A stretch of 63,371 bases of DNA, filler included, from Rhabdomonas costata (Eukaryota): assembly GCA_019059605.1 (NCBI GenBank). It is 41 parts of 41 records of this genome, joined end to end, with 100 filler letters (N's around TTAATTAATTAA, not from the genome) between each part and the next. Parts side by side here need not be neighbours in the genome. Positions count along the whole stretch, not along the records: positions 47,994 to 49,441 come from JAHMHO010015693.1; 40 more parts are not named here. The stretch is one strand, 5' to 3'. The notes beneath the pieces are model-generated. The model saw only the letters and a list, made by a program, of their open reading frames with translations. It was not told the DNA's origin and did no database searches. Shown here one piece after another: positions 18,577 through 60,269 of the stretch. Numbering within the stretch: the first letter of the stretch is position 1; each line of letters starts with the position of its first letter. Both the position numbers and the translations under genes were made by a program.

Positions 18577-20024
18577 GTGTTTTGTGGGAGTGTTCGTGAC
18601 TGACCCTGCGGATGCTTCGTCCTGCCCCCCATGGGTCGGCACAGACACCGTTGCTGCTTTCCAGGCTCTGCGCAAAAACCTGCCCACTCTTTTCGGAAAG
18701 CTGGACATCCAAGAGCAGACCTACCGGGCCTGGCAGGACTGGCTCAAGCAAGCCGCACCAGAGACCTGTGTGAACATGGCAGTGAAGCAGGAGCTCACCC
18801 TTTTCGAGCAGAACCTCGTCGTGGCGACCTTTCGCCCGGACCGTCTCCCGGTTTCCTTGGAGATCCTGGCCTGCCGGCTTCTGGAGCTTGAGAGTCTGAC
18901 CCCTCCGGCAATGAACCTCGCCAGCATCGCGAAAGAAGTATCGGCCACGGAGCCTGTGTTGATGATCACCACGCCCGGGGCAGATCACTCCCAGGAGTGG
19001 GCCGAAATCGCCCAGCAGGTGGTGGGCACCGGGAAGTTCACCCAGCTCGCCATGGGAGGTGGCCAAACCGATGAGGCCATCAACCTTCTTCGACAAGCAG
19101 CCCACTCCGGGGACTGGCTGCTTCTGAAGAACCTGCACCTTGTCGTGGCCTGGGTGGACACTCTGGAGAAGGAGTTTACCAACCTGGCCCCTGCAGAGGG
19201 CTTCCGGCTGTGGCTCACCAGCGAGCCTCACGATGCCTTCCCTGGGATCCTGCTGCGGTCCTCTCTGAAGATTACTTTCCAGAGCCCTCCAGGGATTCGC
19301 AAGAACTTGCTTAGGACGTACGATATGTGGACTCCTGAGTACCTGGAGCAGGTGAGAAATGTTGCCGTGTATTTTTTGTTGGGACGATTTTATTGAGACG
19401 TTTCTGTCACTGTGATATACAGTCTGTTTTTGCTTGCGGTATTGCTACTTGCTTGTTGCATTTTTGTACAGGGGAGCGTGCTCCGTGCCAGAATTCTACT
19501 CGTCCTAGCCTTCTTCCATGCCATTTGCATGGAGCGCCGCACGTACATTCCTCAGGTGTGGAGTACTGTTTAGTGTACTGTGGAGTAAATGCCCGCAGTT
19601 GCTTCGTGAGATCTTTTTGACTTGATCATATTTTGTCTAGTCGTGCGGTAAATGATGGTAAGCTGCTGGCCTTTTGGCTGGCAGCTTGCCACAAATCATC
19701 TCTCCCACACCGTGAATCTTGTCTCCATTTCCCTTCTTGAACATACCGGTGCATTTTCCCATTGAACACTCTCCTCTCATTCTCTCTTCGCTGATCCTTC
19801 CACTGCTCATATGCCAAAGTATTGCTTTTCTGACGCCTGACCCACCTGAAGTAGGACCCTTCCCTGGAATTTCCTGTTACCGTTTTTTATTTCTGTGTTG
19901 CCGTTGCGCTGCACTTTGACCTCTAGGCAATGTGATAACGCCGATGCTGGAATTCCATCTGCTTCCGACGCATATCTGTCTGTGTAGGGATGGGTGAAGT
20001 TCTATGAGGGCAGCGTGGCGGATC
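18577..20024 (+). CDS. DYNC2H1: Cytoplasmic dynein 2 (retrograde IFT) heavy chain, AAA6 region, partial (exons <18577-19351, 19472-19555, 19988->20024)
   Basis: FRPDRL...EPVLMITTPGADHSQE...LAMGGGQ...GDWLLLKNLHLVVAWV..LEKE...FRLWLTSEPH..FPGILLRSSLKITFQSPPGIRKNLLRTYDMWTPE|...FFHAICMERRTYIPQ|GWVKFYE. The KNLHLVVxW and MERRxYIPQGW motifs are typical of dynein-2. Confidence 0.93.
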
Positions 20025-24484: not shown

Positions 24485-25392
24485 CTGTGGGGAGAGGGGA
24501 GGCAGTAATCTCCACTTTCATTGCAAGTCAGATGAAGCTTCGTTCTCTTCAACCTTGCCACGCAACGATTCACATACTTTATCACGCCAAACCATCACAT
24601 CAAGAAAGGGTAGTGTGATTTCGCGGGCCAGCGCATCTCGCTTCGGGTAATTAAGTCCAAAAAACCNNNNNNNNNNNNNNNNNNNNNNNNNNNNNNNNNN
24701 NNNNNNNNNNTTAATTAATTAANNNNNNNNNNNNNNNNNNNNNNNNNNNNNNNNNNNNNNNNNNNNGGGGTGGGGTCATATTTTTTCAGGAGTTCTCTTT
24801 TCATTGCATGCAAGTGCACAAGCTGTTGCAAGAGGTCGGAAGGTGCGCTTCTGGATTTCCTGTGTCACAGGAAGTGCGTCCTGGTGGAGCTGTTTTTTTG
24901 GAGCAGGTTATGTACGTATGTATTCGTACACTGCACAAGGTGACTTACTTAAATGGTGCTCTGAAAGGCCAGAAAGGTTATGGTGTAGAGCTATCTCTAG
25001 GGGACGTTGGGTGAATGCCCATTTTTGTTTTAAGCGGCTTGTCCTGATGTTCATTTCCTCCCAGAGAAAATCTGGCCTGATGGCCCGACCGCCTTGTCAA
25101 AACGTTTTCCGTTCTCTAGATTACTCAGTGGCTGGAGTCCGTAGCAAGCCCATTGGCTAGCAAGCAAAGGCTAAATAAGGCTAATGAAACATTTGTGCCC
25201 CCCTCAGCACCCGTGCAGTGCCTTTGTGTTTGCTGGCGCCAACCTTTGGCCTGTTTTTGTGTCGTTGAACTGCCTGCACCCTCCGTCAGCGCGGGCATGC
25301 TTGTTTTACCTCTGTGCCGTAGAGTTTTCACAAAGGCCTTGTCTTGCAACACAGAAACGTTTTGGGTAGTATCCTTATTTTGCTGGCCTCAG

Positions 25393-25657
25393 AGCGTGAT
25401 CGGGGGAGGAGCCAAGGACGGGCTGTTCTACTCACTGATCGTGAACGTCTCTCCGCTGTACTCCGCGAGGTGCATGGCGCGTTTGTCCCGGATGACCGCG
25501 CGGTGGCTGATGCACCGGGGGTTTAGTATCGGGATCGACGACGTCACACCCAGCCCCTTGCTGATGGAGGAGAAGCACCGCATTGTCCGCGAGGGCTATG
25601 CCCGGTGCACCCAGCTGATCTCGGACTACCAGCAGGGCAAGCTGGAGCCCTCGCCAG
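25393..25657 (+). CDS. POLR3A: RNA polymerase III largest subunit RPC1, internal exon
   Basis: SVIGGGAKDGLFYSLI...MARLSRMTARWLMHRGFSIGIDDVTP...EGYARCTQLISDYQQGKLEPSPG. The GFSIGIxDVTP motif with MxRLxR and GYxxC is characteristic of RPC1. Bounded by cag and gt. Confidence 0.9.
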
Positions 25658-26330
25658 GTGCCCTCCTGGACACTTTAGGGGGCAGGGAGAGGGTGCCCCC
25701 ATCAGGGGTCTGTGAACCCTATTAACCCCCTCTGGGCGAGAGCCTTTAGAGGCATTCGTCTTCCACGGAAGCATCATATCTACCGTGGGGTGGTCGTATT
25801 TTTATACAGATGGATTCATCATAAGCACAGCGACACAAGAAAGGGTCGCAGGATGTTTTTGTGTCTTCATTCACGCCAACCGTGGTGGTCAGCTCACTCC
25901 GTTCTCTCATTGCCGACGTGATATGGGCGATCACTAGAGCCATGATATGGCCATCCTTCAAGCATAAGCCGGTTCGCTGAGTAAAATATACCCACCCCGG
26001 GGCGATTCTGAGTGGCCTGACCCCCGTTTTTTTTAGCTAACAGGCCCCAGGGCCCAAGAAATGCTGGGGTGTTATCTTCATTACACCATTTGGGTTCCTT
26101 CTCAGTCGAGCCTCACTGGGTGGTTCCTTTGGTATGTATTTTGTATGTGCGTCTATCCTTGGGCTGTTCCATTGGTTTGTCAACTCGTGGAACAGCCCAA
26201 GGATAAACCCACACNNNNNNNNNNNNNNNNNNNNNNNNNNNNNNNNNNNNNNNNNNNNTTAATTAATTAANNNNNNNNNNNNNNNNNNNNNNNNNNNNNN
26301 NNNNNNNNNNNNNNCTTGTTCTCCACTGAC

Positions 26331-26368: not shown

Positions 26369-28452
26369 GGTGCGGAAAGCTGCTCTCTCCAGGATAGTAG
26401 TTGCTGTCACGATGCCATGTTCCTGAGACAAAACCGCAGCTGCGTACGGTTTACGTAAATATTTCGGTTCAATTTTAAATCTGAACGCGGGGAGGGTTCG
26501 TTTTCGATGTGGGAACAATTTTTTGATCCGCAATTCTCAACTTTCCACATGCACAGTTTTGGTTACCTCTGATTGCGGAAAACCCAAACACTTCACCTGA
26601 ACTTCCTTCCAACATACTCTAGCGTGGCTGCCCTTACCGTCGTTTAGACCACCAGCACACAAAAGCCCACCCCTTTTCAGGGCGATGTCCTCTCTGGAAT
26701 GGCGTGAAAACAAACCGTTCAGAATGATTCTAGACTACACCTTACGCGTTAGACTTACCCTTTCACACCAAATTCCCAACTTTATTTGGAGGCACAGGAT
26801 TTGGAAATTGTACCAGTTAACAAAAAATGCTGCTTCTGCGTCAGCGCAATTTACAGCCGTACGTATTTTCCCGTGATTTGTCATTGCTTACTCCGTTTAT
26901 GGTTGGAACTCTTCATCGAAGAGAATCCGTTTCACTCTCTTTGTCACCGTTTTAATCTCTTTCTCACAAGATTCCGGCTGGGTTTTCCCTAGAGCTGAAG
27001 GACTGCACGACTGAACGTCCAAACACACTTAAACGTGCAATTTCCTTCGCACAAAACCATAAGAACTCGGATTCCCTTCCCTCAGTAGCATTGACCCCCA
27101 CCCCGCGATAGCAAATGCTGTCGGAAGGTCACCTTTAGACGACACTCAATAGCATGTGCTATGCACGAGGGGGGCGGGGGGCGAAGAGGTTCCCTGACCG
27201 ATTTCAAACTTGGGGGAGATTGTAGAGGACGAGACTTCACTGACCCGCAAACGTTCGTACAACAGGGAAAGAGTGAAACGCACGTGTTGATGGGCACACG
27301 GAGGAGGGGAAGTGGGTCTGGATGGGCTCAAATCCGTAACCCCATGACATCTGAAACAGAAACGCAAATGTTGCGGGTTGGTGAGCAGGATAAGATACGG
27401 GCGGGAAAGGGGTGACCCTATTTTGTACAGTTCTTGTGTGTGGACAGGGGACAGAAACCGTTTGCTGTGGTTGCGGTTCCAGTCTTTCACTTTCCCTCCA
27501 GCAAAGTCCTCAAACCCCAAAAAGAAACATCTTCAGCGAAACAACAAACCTGCACATGAAGCAAGTAGCGACATGCACCTGCCAAAAACAAGGCATGCAA
27601 GGTATGTTAGAAGTTCTCTCAGTGCGGTGTCGGTTGCCGCTATCAACCCTCCATTGAGACACTTTTCCTTTTTACACGTCGGACACAAAGTCCGCGTCGG
27701 TCACCTTTACCATGACAACGGCAGGTTCCCGTTCCATGCAAATTCGGATTAGACCCCCCAAAANNNNNNNNNNNNNNNNNNNNNNNNNNNNNNNNNNNNN
27801 NNNNNNNTTAATTAATTAANNNNNNNNNNNNNNNNNNNNNNNNNNNNNNNNNNNNNNNNNNNNGGTTGGTTGGTAATGAGTGGAACCGTGAAGCGGTGGA
27901 GTGAACCATCAGGAGGAGGCATGCGAGGCACCGAGCATGACGACGACAAGAAGACAGGAGGAACGAGCGCGTAGCGAGTGACGACACGTGATCGATAGAA
28001 AGAATAACGGGAGCATTCGAAGACCTGAGAATGCGACTCTTCAACCACTTAACCCAGTGAACAGGAGACATGAACGCAGTGAGTGTCGAGTGTGACGTCG
28101 TGAGGAGTGGAAGCGCGTAGCGGTGGAACGACGAACTACCACATTACGAACGGAGTGAGTGGAGCGTAGCGTAACGAACGTAGTGAGAGCGTCGCCGTAG
28201 GCGGTCTTCATCTTTACTCTCTTACCGGTCGGCCTTCGCTACACGCTCAGACCTCCCTCTATCATCACTCTTAGCATCTCAGTCCCCTTGTGCCTGGCAT
28301 CGTCACTGTCGGGGTGTCCTCAGTGTGGGAGTGTGGTCATCACCGTCACCCTCTGTCACACTCTCTCTCACTCTTACCCTTACGCTAGAATACCCCAACG
28401 TGGGGTGAAAGGTGAGGAGGGTTGGATGCTGAGGGTGGATTCGACGCAGCGG

Positions 28453-28872
28453 TCACCCTGTCACTGCTCGGTCCACACACGCTATGGTTGTTGTGTCATG
28501 GTACATCCTTCGTGTAGGTTGGGTAGTACCATGGTGGTCAGGGCGCACGACTTCCCCTTCCACGACACCACGACATAAGGTTACGAGTGATGCCGGCTGT
28601 GTGAGTTGTCGACCTAGCTGGTGTTGCGTGCATATATGGTGATGAGCCACACTTCCGCTCACAGTGTCGTAATCGACATCCTCACCCTCACTCATGGAGG
28701 CTGGGTAGACATAGCCACAAGGTGTGGTTGCCATCCACCATTCACCTCCACTTCCACAATCGGGGTCAGTGCCTAGGAGTTGAGTGCACGTGTCACCGTT
28801 CCTCCCTGTCCTTCCCTCATTGCGTGTCAGGTAGCCTTCGTACCAGATTGTCGCAATCGGATCACTTCTTGC
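28453..28872 (-). CDS. Intronless open frame (139 codons; ATG at 28734), possibly a degenerate His-Me finger/HNH-like endonuclease
   Basis: C..GEWWMATTPCGY...VAHHHI...LGRQL...LVTLCRG...VVRPDHH loosely follows CWxWxG...GY...AHR...G.IP...V.H.C...CVNPxHL. Key residues are altered, so the assignment is speculative. Confidence 0.3.
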   Translation of the reverse strand, partial: ARSDPIATIWYEGYLTRNEGRTGRNGDTCTQLLGTDPDCGSGGEWWMATTPCGYVYPASMSEGEDVDYDTVSGSVAHHHICTQHQLGRQLTQPASLVTLCRGVVEGEVVRPDHHGTTQPTRRMYHDTTTIACVDRAVTG

Positions 28873-29949
28873 TCAAGGTAGCTCTCATTGTCCTGTGTCC
28901 ACGTACGGAATGTTCTAAATGCGGGGCGTCTGTGATCTCACCTCTCGATAGGAGGAAGGAAGGCCAACGAAAGGAAACACGAGCAACACTGAGGATCACA
29001 CCGGGAACCACTTCAACCCCGCGGACAGCCAAGCACCGGCAACAACACCACGGAACCCACACCAACGACTCAACGACTCCGACTCACCCAACGACCCAAA
29101 ACCAATTAGCCCAAGAACCCGCCCTCCGAAGAGGGAAGAAGGAAACCGAACCCGAAGACAGAACCGTGAACCCTGAACCCGAAGACAGAATGCAAAGACC
29201 GATACACTCCTGACCCTGAACCCTGAACTCTGACCCTCACCCTGACGACAGAAACGCGTGACACCGTGACCCTCACACCCAACGCTTCGACTCACCCAAC
29301 GACCAAAAAAANNNNNNNNNNNNNNNNNNNNNNNNNNNNNNNNNNNNNNNNNNNNTTAATTAATTAANNNNNNNNNNNNNNNNNNNNNNNNNNNNNNNNN
29401 NNNNNNNNNNNGGGTTTTGGGGCAAGATTGGGCAGTTCTTAACAGGCCCTTTGGGATCAGAAGGAAGCTGGTTTGCGGACTTGTGCTGTGTCCATCACCA
29501 TGAAACAGTCAGTTGTACGAAGTAAGAGCGGGGCGTGGGAGGGTGGGTAGATGGGTTGCTCACGCCCTGTGGCTGTGGTTGGTCTATCCCAGCCCAGACC
29601 ATGGGAGTCGTGGGGTGGTGTTGTGCGTGTATTGTCCTCGACGCGGAAATTCTTCTTCAGAGGGTGGTGGTTCGTGTTTGCCGTTGTTTGTGCCGACTCG
29701 TCCTCTTGAGCTGCGGACCGCCACAGCCGGCACCGTGAGGTTCTGTCCAGCTTGCTTACCAAGAGGTTGGGGAAATACAATACTCTTTCGCCTCTTGCAC
29801 CGCAGTTTTCATTGACGACGGGTATGGGTTGGTGTTGGTAAAGTCCCGAATGTCCACCGACGAGGCCGTGCAGTGGAAACCTCTACATTGCGATTTGTGC
29901 AGAAGTGGCAAAAGTTCTCAGCAATAGGGTAGCTACCTTGTCCGACGAA

Positions 29950-47993: not shown

Positions 47994-49441
47994 GGGGGGG
48001 CACCACCAGAGGGAGGGAGGCCGAAGGCCGACCACGTATACCCTACCAGCGGTGCCGATGCTATTCCGGGTGCCCACCCTCATGTCGGGATGTGGTGCTT
48101 GCTTTTGGCGCGCCGACGGCGCTCCCTCCAAAGAACCGCCCACCCGGCGGCGGCAAATGCACAAATCGCCCCGGTGTGGTGCTGTTGGTGGTGTTCTCTC
48201 TTGCCCACGTAAGGGAGGATTTAGCAGAACGGCCAAGGTTCATGGGGCAAAGGATTGAAGCGGCCAGCAACGAGGCGGTATTGTTGCAACCCGCTTGGTG
48301 GGTCAGGCGGTCGTTTCGACATCGCAGGCTGGGAAAAAGCTACAAGGCATCAACTGGGAGGAAATGAAAAGCAACCCGAAGATCCGGCAAACCACTCCAA
48401 CACGGAGGCTGGAAACAGCGGGTTTTTCAAAGCGCAGTTTTACGTAAGCGCGGGAAAGTGTCTCCCAAGGGCCGGCATTGGAGAAAACAGTTGGGCTGAT
48501 TCTTTGACTTTTCGTGGCCTATCCGCCTTAGGGCGCTGTGCTGCGGCCAGGTAATGTGACCGGGATTTCAAGGTAAAGGCCAACGCACATTCCGCATGAA
48601 ATGTGGTGCCCGATTCGTGCAATTGGGTTTAGTTCTTTTTGCGGGGTTTTGTTCCTGGAAGCCCGCGCGCTTACTATGTCTGTTTCTACCGATGGCGGTA
48701 AGAACCATGGTGATACGTCGTACGAATACGGGGGTTATGCCAGTGCCTACTCATCCTTAAAATATGCGCATAGAGTCCCCGAAGCGACCGACAGAAACCG
48801 AAACGGAAGACAGGATAGCTGATACAAAGAGAGCCTGTGTTCCAACCGAGACCAAATGCCGAATGCCGAATGCAGAAAACCGAGCACAAAGACCCGAACC
48901 CCAACCCAGAATGCCGATACCCTAACATCCTCAACTCGGGAACACTAACACCAACCAAAAGAAGAAACCCAACCCCGAATGCAAAAACCGAACCCCAAAT
49001 ACCAACCCCAAATTTTACGCAAGACCCAACCCCATGACCAAATGCATACATCCACCAAGAGTCACCAAGACCCTACACCACTTGGACCTACGCATACCCA
49101 ATTGGATCCCCTACCCTCGAAAATGCCCGGTGCATACGACCACGGCATGATACCACCCTAGATGCACTTGATGATACGTGTGTGATTCTTGGCGCCCCTG
49201 GGGTTTTGCTGGTCGCATGTTCCTTCGCCACGTGGTACCTATGAGTGATGGTTCAGTGATGATGCGCTCCCAGCATAAGCCGCCTACGCATATTGACCTA
49301 CCCCCTACACCCCCGGGGGGGCACCACCAGAGGGAGGGAGGCCGAAGGCCGACCACGTATACCCTACCAGCGGTGCCGATGCTATTCCGGGTGCCCACCC
49401 TCATGTCGGGATGTGGTGCTTGCTTTTGGCGCGCCGACGGC
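47994..49441. other. Contig with an exact 127-bp terminal direct repeat: a 1,321-bp circular DNA or tandem-repeat unit
   Basis: 47994-48120 is identical to 49315-49441 (127 nt, the usual k=127 de Bruijn loop overlap). It lacks the A/C-only 3' tail seen on most other contigs. Confidence 0.9.
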
Positions 49442-49837
49442 NNNNNNNNNNNNNNNNNNNNNNNNNNNNNNNNNNNNNNNNNNNNTTAATTAATTAANNN
49501 NNNNNNNNNNNNNNNNNNNNNNNNNNNNNNNNNNNNNNNNNGGTGTGGTGTTGAAAAAGCACAAGGACCATCAACCTAGAAGAGAAAAAAACTTGTTCTT
49601 TTCTCTTCTAGGTTGATGGTCCTTGTGCTTTTTCTACACCATTCCACCTGCTTTTGTACATAGTGCACTTTTGGGACTCGCCCTGCTTGGTTTGTGCTTT
49701 TCCGTTGGTTAAAAAAAGCGATTAAAACCAAGTACAAGCGATCAAAAGCGAGCACAAGTCCCAAATTCCCAGGTTATAAAAAACACAACTGCAGCCTCGA
49801 TGTTTGCTCGAATTCCGAAAACAAGTGAGAGAGCAAC

Positions 49838-53776: not shown

Positions 53777-54551
53777 CTGAGTTGAGAGGGCCCCAAACCT
53801 ACCCCTTCTCCCCTATCTCGAATCGACACCCTCTCCTATCCCAGGACCTGTAGGGTCCGGGGCATTTGGGAAGGGGAATTGGGGGGGGGGGGTAAACGGT
53901 ATAACGAAGTCATACCGTTTACCCCACCACCAATACCCACCCACACACTGAGCTGGGTGCGAAGGGAGAACACTGGTACGAATACTGTCAGGCACCGAGG
54001 TCGGCTCGATCATGGTCTAACACGCTGGTCTCGATTAGGCGTTAGGATGAAGGCAACTCTGGCCCCTCCAAGTGGTTGGGGACATNNNNNNNNNNNNNNN
54101 NNNNNNNNNNNNNNNNNNNNNNNNNNNNNTTAATTAATTAANNNNNNNNNNNNNNNNNNNNNNNNNNNNNNNNNNNNNNNNNNNNTGTTGTGTAGAGAGC
54201 GGGTGTCAGAAACCTTGTGTGCGTGTGTGTGTGGGTGTGTGTGTGTGTACACGCAGCTTTTGAAGAAGCGCTAATTCGGAAGCCTTCTGCGACGCCTTTT
54301 CAAGTGTCCAGGAAAAGGCCTGGAAATGATTAGGGTTCGTCGGTGTGCTCCAGCTTTAGGGTTCATATATTCGCACTCATATGCAATCAAATGGCAAATT
54401 GCTTCTGCCACCCTCCCTTGTTCAATCGAGTCTGTCTATCTCTCTCTCGTCAACTCGAATCGAATTCTTTTGAAGTGGAAGCGGTAAGCACAGGAAGGAG
54501 CATCCAGAGCGAGCCGGTGCCGGTGAGTGTGGTTGATGCTGCTGCTGTAAA

Positions 54552-54611
54552 AAAAATATTCCTTGGATGCGCTGCATACATATATATGCAGCGCACCCAA
54601 GGAATATTTTT
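54552..54611. repeat. 60-bp near-perfect palindrome upstream of acetyl-CoA synthetase
   Basis: aaaaatattccttgg-a-tgcgctgcata-c-atat-a-tatgcagcgca-c-ccaaggaatattttt is self-complementary except for two mispairs. Confidence 0.92.
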
Positions 54612-54866
54612 CTGCGCGTGTACCAAACCCTTAAACCCTTGGCGACTTTCGGGGTGTCCATTTTTGTTTTTTACATACACCGTGTACCATGTACCACCAT
54701 GTACCGAAAGACAGCTGGCAACCAAAGTCTGAAGGCCTGTGGTGGGATCAGAATCATTCTGTTTCCCTCTCTCTTTCCGTATTTGCAGCCACCCTCCCTT
54801 CTCCGATCCGGTACTTTTCTCTGGTTTTCTCTCTGTGGAATCTCTCTTTCCCTTCTTTGCTTGGGA

Positions 54867-55633
54867 ATGGCCGAGTACACCGTGGTGCCTCCCACTGCGG
54901 ACATCGTCGCGCGGTCCTGGCTGAAGAGCCTGGAGGTTGGCTGCCTGTCCTGTAAATTCTGATGCCTGCACGATGGAGCAAAAGAGCACGGGAAGGGAGG
55001 AACGGGACCGCGGAGCACTTTGGTAAGAATCCGGCATATTTCCCTTCCCCGGCGAGGTCGGTGTGTCTCTATGGATGCTCAGCAGCAGGAGTAACGTTCA
55101 CGCTATGTGAAGATGGGAAGGGACTGCTTTAAGTGCGTTGTGAAGGCGCACATTAGGCGTTGACATCCATGCCTTCCCTTCCAATCTGAGTTCCCCTGTC
55201 GCCACGATGCTCTCAATGTCTGCTCTTCTTAGGGTCGCAAGGCGCTGTACGCGAAGTCCATTGAGGACCCGAACAGCTTCTGGTCAGACTATGCCAAGTA
55301 CGTCGCCTCTCCGTGCTCTGCGCCATCTGCGCCATCCACCTTGCCTCCTTTCCCGGCTGCTCGGCTTCAGATGGGAGTGTGGGTGAGTGTGGGTCCCCCG
55401 GGTCCTCTGAGATCTCACCCAAAAATGGGCCATATCCCCCGCACCCAGACCTCGTTGAGGCTTTCAGAGAAGTACAGGGAGCTCAGTCAGAGGAACAGAG
55501 GAACGTCGGCCTAATCACAGTCCCCGTGCGCCTCTTCATCCTTGTTCCTATTTTCTGTTTTATATAGGGACAACTTCCGCTGGGAGAAGCTGTGGGAGGG
55601 CAACCAGGTCTGCAGCTACAAATACGACGTCCG
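54867..55633 (+). CDS. ACS: Acetyl-CoA synthetase (AMP-forming), N-terminal exons 54867-54935, 55233-55297, 55568->55633
   Basis: MAEYTVVPPTADIVARSWLKSLE|GRKALYAKSIEDPNSFWSDYAK|DNFRWEKLW contains the ACAS_N motif LYxxSIxDPxxFWxxxA followed by FxW. Intron phases are compatible. Confidence 0.88.
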
Positions 55634-57076: not shown

Positions 57077-57688
57077 CTGTGGTACCCCCCCACACACAAA
57101 AACAAAAAGCCCTTTACTCTTCGGAATTCCCACAGCCGCAATTCGTCCGCACTCAGGACACGCCCAGCAACACCACCCCCCNNNNNNNNNNNNNNNNNNN
57201 NNNNNNNNNNNNNNNNNNNNNNNNNTTAATTAATTAANNNNNNNNNNNNNNNNNNNNNNNNNNNNNNNNNNNNNNNNNNNNGGTTTTTTGTATGCATGGA
57301 TTGTATTTGACGTTGATGTGAGTGTGTTTTGCTGTTGTGCATGTCCATCTTCTGCCCACAAACTGCCTGTTTGCACTGTGGTGGCTTGTGTTAGTGATTC
57401 TCCTAATCTTAACTTGCAAAATGCAGTGTGCTGAATTTTTTTTAGCGGACAGCGTTGGAGGGAAGCTTCCCGTCCTCTTAAACGTAGAAGACATCGGTTG
57501 AACTTACCTGGAGGTGTTTTTGTTTCCTTTTGGCCTGTTCTTTGTGTCCATTCCTACCTCTTGCTTTTGAAATGACGCGGAGCATCTCTTCGGTGTCATC
57601 CTCCTCGCTCTTTTTTCTTCGTTCTCCTCAGGGTTGCAGCTTTGCCTGACCTGCTTTCTTCACCAATCCCGTTGCCTTTTTTTTTTGC

Positions 57689-58729
57689 ATGTCAACGATG
57701 AAGCCCCCACCAGAGCATCCCAACTCACCAGTACCCTTTTCCCAAGCAGTGTCCTCCCGACTGAGCTCAGGATTTCCCATCGACTGCCTGCAGATAATCT
57801 TCAGCTTTGCCCGGAGCCACGGGTCTGTTTGTGGGGTTTGCCGGCAGTGGTACGCACTCGCTCACCTCCGCCACGTCGTCCTCGAAGAGCCATGTTGGGC
57901 ACTTGCCTCCGAGAAGGTGGCGTTGCGGGAGATGCTTGCAAAGGCGCGAACGGTTCGGGTTTCCATTCGTGTCACAAAGAGTGGACCCCCTCCTCTCTTT
58001 GAGGCGTCCGACAAGGGGTGTGTGGAGCTTGCCGAGCTTCTGCTGCGTGGTCAGGTGGACATCAACCAGGTCCAGAAGGACAGAGCCTCTCCACTTTTCA
58101 TCTCATGCCAAAATGGCCACGTTAAGATTGTCGAGCTTCTGCTTCGCCACCATGCCGATGTAAACCTGTGCACGAAGAATGGTTTATCACCTCTTTATAT
58201 TGCCTGTCAAAACGGCCACCGCAAGCTCGTGGGGTTGCTGCTGAACAACCAGGCAGACGTAAGCCATCTGACGAAAGCAGAAGGCGCCTCCGCCGTATAC
58301 ATCGCCTCTCAAAATGGTCACCTTGAGATTGCAGCGTTGCTGCTGCGTCATCAAGCGGACGTTCACCAGACTACAGAGAGCGGGGCCTCCCCTCTTATCA
58401 TCGCCTCTGAAAGGGGCTATCGTGAGATTGTAGGGTTGCTGCTGCGTCATCAGGCGGACGTTCACCAGACTACAGAGAGGGGTTGGCATCACTCCTCTTT
58501 GGATTTACCTCCGGATATGGCTACAGCGACGTCGTGCAGCTGCTGCTGCATTACCAGGCGGACGTTAACCCGTCGGGGGAGTATCCTACCCCTCTTATGA
58601 TAGCAGCGTACTACAGTCATAGGAAGGTGGTGAAGGTGCTTTTTCAGTTCGGTGCCTGTGTGGAGGCGGAGGACGGCGAAGGGGCCACGGCGTTGAAGTG
58701 GGCTCGCCGCCCTCCGCCTCCACACCACA
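57689..58729 (+). CDS. F-box plus ankyrin-repeat protein, intronless here, with a frameshift at ~58483 (pseudogene or sequencing error)
   Basis: F-box-like FPIDCLQIIFSF...VCGVCRQWYALA, then ANK repeats (SPLFISCQNGHVKIVELLL and similar). The repeats continue in a different frame after 58483 (GYSDVVQLLLHYQADVN...TPLMIAAYYSHRKVVKVL...DGEGATALKWA). Confidence 0.88.
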
Positions 58730-60160: not shown

Positions 60161-60269
60161 GTGTACACATCAGTATCTTTGACAATTATGTATGCCAGTG
60201 TTAATGACACAACTTTAAAATATAAGTAAGATTGGAAAACATAATTGTCAAAGATACTGATGTGTACAC
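60161..60269. repeat. 31-bp perfect inverted repeat with a 47-bp spacer, at the contig end
   Basis: 60161-60191 (gtgtacacatcagtatctttgacaattatgt) is the reverse complement of 60239-60269. Confidence 0.93.

Follow-up and report, generated by a model that had tools for sequence, protein, structure and literature searches.

A 1321-bp non-coding unit on a self-closing contig: a candidate tandem repeat of a protist nuclear genome, collapsed in assembly

Introduction

Kinetoplast minicircles are A+T-rich, have a guide-RNA cassette layout and carry the 12-mer GGGGTTGGTGTA, known as conserved sequence block 3 (CSB-3) or the universal minicircle 12-mer, and the mitochondrial chromosomes of diplonemids are several kb in size. 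DNA satellites of the geminivirus type measure about 1.3 kb, and the origin of such satellites, like that of CRESS replicons, is a stem-loop with a NANTATTAC-type nonanucleotide. For Euglena gracilis, about 1000 eccDNA candidates have been reported, many of which come from repeats (bioRxiv 10.1101/2023.11.29.569251). Euglenozoan mitochondrial contigs, in turn, are told from nuclear ones in PMC6792441 by lower GC, by tetranucleotide use and by coverage, and PMC8219788 reports a genetic code with TGA=W and TAG=Y for a euglenid mitochondrion.

Here we describe a contig of a draft genome that closes on itself and contains a single 1321-bp unit. The initial annotation had considered an extrachromosomal minicircle, with mitochondrial, plasmid and satellite-like options, and the last of these is the preferred reading here. 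Specifically, the most likely source of the contig, with a probability of roughly one half, is a candidate homogeneous tandem (satellite-type) repeat of the host nuclear genome that has been collapsed in assembly.

The window and its host contigs

The window, that is, the whole stretch of DNA that was analysed (63,371 bases), is not a single locus, and is made up of 41 separate contigs of 1442-1458 bp each, ordered by size, with spacers of N and TTAATTAATTAA between them. The contig of interest is a complete one that lies between two of these N/TTAATTAATTAA spacers (Table 1). The remaining 40 contigs, in which GC varies between 0.431 and 0.563, have the appearance of pieces of a eukaryotic nuclear genome with introns. 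There is also a genome-wide scarcity of TAA and TAG, with a TpA observed/expected ratio of 0.36-0.81 across contigs.

In one of these contigs, 18578-19396 is an exon for the heavy chain of cytoplasmic (IFT) dynein-2, with both PF03028 and PF18198 present, and in a tblastn comparison the match reaches about position 988 of the contig (window 18578-19564). Identity to the best relatives is 47-50% over most of the length, with a maximum of 59% at partial coverage. In a tree of named relatives the exon pairs with a kinetoplastid sequence (SH-aLRT 95), in a data set of 10 rows with one euglenozoan only and with both of the paired branches long. The euglenozoan affinity of the host, which had been assumed beforehand, appears plausible from this comparison of sequences. 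Two further open frames were noticed among the other contigs, namely one of 316 aa at 57650-58600 (+), judged by eye to contain ankyrin-type repeats, and one at 25120-25725 (+), the middle of which resembles, by eye only, an exon of the RNA polymerase largest subunit.

Table 1. Coordinates of the self-closing contig, of the features within it and of the snap-back contig ends in the same window
Feature	Position	Strand	Basis or remark
Contig closing on itself, 1448 bp	47994-49441		Loop edge of k=127 de Bruijn graph; terminal overlap
Single repeat unit, 1321 bp, non-coding, GC 0.547	47994-49314		Overlap spacing; gene searches empty
Terminal overlap copy 1, 127 nt, anchor vertex of loop	47994-48120		100% identical to 49315-49441
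Terminal overlap copy 2, 127 nt	49315-49441		100% identical to 47994-48120
Palindrome CCCCCGGGGG, C5 then G7, across unit junction	49310-49319		Sequence inspection
Hairpin GGCC-GAA-GGCC, GGCCGAAGGCC	48019-48029		Present; overall hairpin density at chance
Hairpin GCGCC-GAC-GGCGC, GCGCCGACGGCGC	48110-48122		Present; overall hairpin density at chance
Strand-asymmetric A/C-rich degenerate low-complexity block; words CCAACC, AACCCC, CCGAA, GAATGC	48785-49110	+	
Snap-back inverted repeat, contig starting at 7744	9084-9188		
Snap-back inverted repeat, contig starting at 24767	26146-26213		
Snap-back inverted repeat, contig starting at 49542	49546-49641		
Snap-back inverted repeat, contig starting at 57282	58658-58725		
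Snap-back inverted repeat, contig starting at 58830	60161-60269		

Closure of the contig and its junction

The two ends of the contig form an exact direct overlap of 127 nt, identical throughout and 1321 bp apart, so that the terminal identity and the 1321-bp unit claimed in the initial annotation are both confirmed. An exact terminal direct overlap of at least 11 nt was found in this contig alone (1/41). The number 127 is the largest default k in one widely used assembler, and an overlap of exactly k is the mark of a loop edge whose anchor is a single k-mer vertex. It follows from an overlap of exactly this length that reads truly linked the end of the unit to its start. The assembly graph does contain a closed cycle, and the 1321-bp non-coding unit occurs head-to-tail in the sequenced DNA. 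The k-mer terminal overlap alone does not prove a circle, and a circle, a collapsed head-to-tail array and a false junction all yield an identical contig.

In the CCCCCGGGGG(GG) palindrome, the contig start coincides exactly with the C|G centre. The start of a loop normally marks the place where a branch was last attached to the cycle, so that the palindrome centre may be the site of a variant, of a homopolymer prone to errors or of a true boundary. At and near the junction, the palindrome and both triloop hairpins lie where they had been placed, but the ‘origin-like hairpin cluster’ that they were thought to form finds no support, as hairpin density is no higher than expected by chance. More specifically, 18 perfect hairpins (stem of at least 4, loop of 3-6) were counted in the unit against 22.0 +/- 5.7 in 300 dinucleotide shuffles, 237 of which contained at least 18, and 3 hairpins with a stem of at least 5 against 5.8 +/- 2.6 in such shuffles. 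Seven of the 18 fall into the two bins flanking the junction, and one bin, 47994-48093, has the highest G+C (0.67) of all 100-nt bins of the contig. G-quadruplex motifs were considered as a special origin feature and rejected, since 23 of the 41 contigs contain at least one.

The A/C-rich block

The strand-skewed, A/C-rich repeat block is confirmed, and none of the other 40 contigs has a stronger one. Its A+C content reaches 0.795 per 200-nt window (the second contig in this ranking, 27864-29311, reaches 0.755 in 200 nt) and amounts to 0.76-0.80 in the two 100-nt bins that begin at 48894 and 48994. Sub-periodicity within the block is weak, with lags of 6, 7, 13 and 20, and the arrays that it contains are tiny and degenerate (AATGCCG x3.3 and a 13-nt unit x2.4). 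The presence of a comparable A/C-rich block on the ordinary contig 27864-29311 indicates that this style of sequence is native to the genome.

That other degenerate block occupies 28964-29311, at the end of its contig, and features the words GAACCC, CCGAA and CAGAATGC. Homology between the two blocks was considered and rejected as not significant, the best alignment being of 20 nt at 90% identity (E 0.22).

Gene, RNA and composition searches

The absence of any recognisable gene, as proposed in the initial annotation, is borne out by searches at the levels of RNA and protein, all of which came back empty. Rfam returned no family at E<=1 on the contig, rRNA and 5S included, and no gathering-level match across the whole window, and ARAGORN predicted no tRNA on the contig, in agreement with the statement that rRNA, 5S and tRNA genes are absent. 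At the protein level, 5 + 17 frames were compared with Pfam under three codes (standard, TGA=W, and TGA=W plus TAG=Y, the last of these being applied to 17 of 20 listed frames that span at least 50 aa), and no family came up below E 0.03.

The longest standard-code ORF on the circle has 149 codons, a length reached in 167 of 300 dinucleotide shuffles. With TGA read as W, a frame of 420 codons nearly circles the unit, and this length was reached in 0/200 mononucleotide and 5/300 dinucleotide shuffles; we attribute it to the genome-wide shortage of TAA and TAG. Indeed, frames free of TAA and TAG extend to at least 420 codons in 3 and to at least 405 codons in 5 of the other 40 contigs, which implies that such TGA-read-through ‘ORFs’ arise from composition alone. 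A phmmer search with the 254-aa linear part of the 420-codon frame gave no match in 1.84 billion representative proteins. A coding reading of this frame was rejected, given the similar frames in other contigs and the lack of a Pfam or phmmer match.

Local folding of the unit is unremarkable on average, with a mean z of -0.20 and 2 of 68 windows below -2, and the 120-nt window that starts at 48794 (+) folds with z = -3.6. Two further candidates were rejected: a structured RNA or viroid-like rod, the fold being branched and without a ribozyme family at Rfam E<=1, and a transposon, as no terminal inverted repeats or transposon ends were found in the unit.

In composition, the unit resembles its neighbours. 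Its GC lies inside their range, its trinucleotide distance ranks 5th of the 41 contigs, and its CpG and TpA observed/expected ratios (0.86 and 0.75) are both within the range of the other contigs. The distinct, organelle-type GC or oligonucleotide use by which mitochondrial contigs are recognised in PMC6792441 was not seen in the unit.

A collapsed tandem repeat as the most likely source

A nuclear tandem repeat is considered the most likely source because of the host-like composition of the unit, the lack of a replicon or gene signature, its micro-repeats and the comparable A/C-rich block elsewhere in the window. More specifically, (i) the composition matches that of neighbouring contigs, at least one of which carries a nuclear-type exon (dynein-2), (ii) degenerate micro-repeats like those inside the unit are a typical trait of satellite monomers, (iii) there is no gene, and the longest standard ORF stays within the range of the shuffles, and (iv) exact CSB-3, TATTAC and terminal inverted repeats were not found in the unit, and hairpins are at chance level. 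On the other side, a single clean cycle with no variants in the 40 neighbours fits a clonal circle equally well, and repeat-derived eccDNA is reported from a euglenid (bioRxiv 10.1101/2023.11.29.569251). The 420-codon read-through frame, rarely matched in dinucleotide shuffles, also counts against a tandem repeat, a point which is offset by the contigs that have frames at least as long.

A collapsed array could have given rise to the contig as follows. Reads linked the end of the unit to its start over at least 128 nt, so that the k=127 graph contains a closed cycle, and the assembler put this out as one loop edge, with the anchor 127-mer at both ends. Every copy of the array would collapse onto the same cycle, and the low-coverage flanks of the array would probably be clipped. 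The anchor at the C5|G7 palindrome may stem from a former branch, due either to a variant or error in homopolymer length or to the boundary of the array. From what is generally known of satellites, the unit would be expected to encode nothing, unequal crossing-over together with gene conversion would account for its uniformity, and the A/C-rich core may have grown by slippage of short motifs of the CCGAA/CCCAA/GAATGC type. Such arrays may also loop out as extrachromosomal circles, and tandem and circular forms may coexist.

Alternative explanations

The first alternative to be weighed is a true 1321-bp extrachromosomal circle, be it repeat-derived nuclear eccDNA, a gene-less plasmid-like circle or a mitochondrial minicircle, and we regard it as rather unlikely overall. 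Within this reading most of the weight falls on repeat-derived eccDNA, and the mitochondrial minicircle, with a small share, is the least likely form. A closed cycle with a k-mer overlap is just what a circle would be expected to produce, and it is a single clean one, with no variants among the neighbouring contigs. However, eccDNA from a random locus is rarely present at assembly depth, and the hairpins of the unit are not enriched. The many repeat-derived candidates described for Euglena gracilis in bioRxiv 10.1101/2023.11.29.569251 speak for a circle, as do the pairing of the host with a kinetoplastid in the small dynein tree of 10 rows (SH-aLRT 95, both branches long) and the kb-sized mitochondrial circles of euglenozoans that are mentioned in PMC6792441.

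The mitochondrial form of this alternative, which the initial annotation had put forward, is disfavoured by a nuclear-like composition, by the lack of an exact CSB-3 and of a gene module, and by the fact that the unit shares no sequence beyond 20 nt with the other 40 contigs. For the CSB-3 12-mer there is no exact or 1-mismatch match in the unit, and its single 2-mismatch match, at 48998-49009 (-), resembles 11 others elsewhere in the window, which contains 12 such matches against 4.8 +/- 2.1 expected. No mitochondrial gene-fragment cassette of the diplonemid type was detected by Pfam below E 0.03 in frames of at least 50 aa, and neither a gene module nor a protein family emerged under mitochondrial codes. 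Among the 41 contigs of the window, none of the other 40 shares more than 20 nt with the unit, and no common constant region was seen within this set. The GC and trinucleotide use of the unit are like those of nuclear-type contigs, from which mitochondrial ones are reported to be distinct in PMC6792441.

An artefact of amplification or assembly is improbable. Under this reading, whole-genome amplification would have created a chimeric head-to-tail junction, perhaps through template switching within the C5/G7 run, and a linear locus of single copy would thereby have been turned into a false cycle. The exact placement of the contig start at the centre of the G/C palindrome would fit such an event, and the window does contain suspicious joins. 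Specifically, 5 of the 41 contigs have terminal inverted repeats (Table 1) located 1-6 nt from the contig end, their arms matching over 21-50 bases and enclosing loops of 1-35 nt, and there is also one internal, loop-free palindrome at 54552-54611, in contig 54186-55633, in which 28 bases match in each arm. Terminal snap-back inverted repeats are the usual mark of amplification chimeras, and those seen here resemble chimeric or hairpin artefacts of the library; it follows that the sequencing library was probably amplified and contains artefactual joins. An example of a similarly fragmented euglenid draft made from amplified DNA is found in PMC8219788. Against this explanation, the artefacts seen here are inverted joins and not direct ones, a false cycle requires that both true flanks be missing or clipped, and the junction would have needed read cover over at least 128 nt that survived graph cleaning, as judged from the behaviour of assemblers.

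There is a very slight chance that the unit is that of a tandem non-coding RNA gene, such as one for spliced-leader RNA or a snoRNA cluster, whose divergence puts it beyond the reach of current models. Genes of the spliced-leader RNA and snoRNA type are tandemly repeated in euglenids, one canonical C-box, GTGATGA, is present at unit offset 1262, some 58 nt upstream of the junction, and the 120-nt window at 48794 (+) stands out by its folding. Against this, Rfam has no match at E<=1, and mean local folding is near zero, with few windows below -2. The 3' part of a published euglenid spliced leader has no match at up to 3 mismatches, none of the 9 matches to TTTTTTCGGT in the window (at up to 1 mismatch) falls inside the unit, and a euglenid SL-RNA repeat, i.e. 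an exon ending in a T-run plus CG, then GT, found no match inside 47994-49441. The search for snoRNAs of the C/D-box type (RTGATGA C box and CTGA D box, 30-115 nt apart, with a terminal stem) gave 1 C box and 0 C-D pairs, the sole C box having no D box 30-115 nt past it.

A contaminant, whether a bacterial, viral or plasmid circle or the satellite of a circular ssDNA virus, is scarcely credible, its size near that of the 1.3-kb geminivirus-type satellites being set against a host-like composition, the lack of TATTAC on either strand of the unit and of any ORF or family, the lack of a blastn match to the unit in plasmids and phages, and exact 24-mer searches, which detect near-identical DNA only, in which two 24-mers of the unit had no match in metagenome contigs and one of the two had none in prokaryote genomes or in viral contigs.

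Significance

If the unit is a satellite, its import is little: the genome of a poorly sampled protist would have one more lineage-specific repeat. A different meaning would attach to a gene-less 1.3-kb circle that is stable, present in high copy and autonomously replicating, be it nuclear or mitochondrial, and unrelated to kinetoplast minicircles, for which we see a slim chance. Within that reading, the A/C-rich block with its C-tracts would be a cis-acting replication or maintenance element, and the host would be a euglenozoan-like, intron-bearing flagellate. If a euglenid- or diplonemid-like host did maintain such a circle, this would represent a new kind of small replicon in a group with bizarre organelle genomes and would bear on the origin of minicircle systems. 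No result obtained here lifts this possibility beyond a small probability.

Comparison with known systems

In the plasmid, phage, metagenome, prokaryote and viral collections searched the unit is without a known relative, and it is ordinary in kind. Among the matches listed, no related euglenid tandem satellite DNA was found in the literature.

With kinetoplast minicircles the unit shares the size class of about 1 kb, an assembly that looks circular and a host affinity that is possibly euglenozoan. It differs from them in its G+C of 0.547, in having no exact CSB-3 and in showing no recognisable organisation into guide-RNA cassettes, and the host genes here contain introns. Diplonemid mitochondrial chromosomes are likewise circular and mostly non-coding, but they have a gene module and common constant regions, whereas in the unit no module was detected and nothing is shared with the other 40 contigs of the window. 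The geminivirus-associated DNA satellites of about 1.3 kb resemble the unit in size and in a purine/A-rich, strand-biased block, and the unit departs from them in its high G+C and in the lack of a TATTAC-type nonanucleotide hairpin, of a betaC1- or Rep-like ORF and of a match in viral collections.

The repeat-derived eccDNA of Euglena gracilis, as presented in bioRxiv 10.1101/2023.11.29.569251, is another comparable system, being sub-kb to kb in size and gene-poor, and it would assemble identically; it was enriched there by exonuclease, whereas here there is an assembled contig alone. Compared with long-monomer satellite DNA, the unit had no related monomer in the 40 neighbours or in the collections searched, but it shares with such satellites the head-to-tail junction, the non-coding nature, the host-like composition, the micro-repeats and the k-mer terminal overlap.
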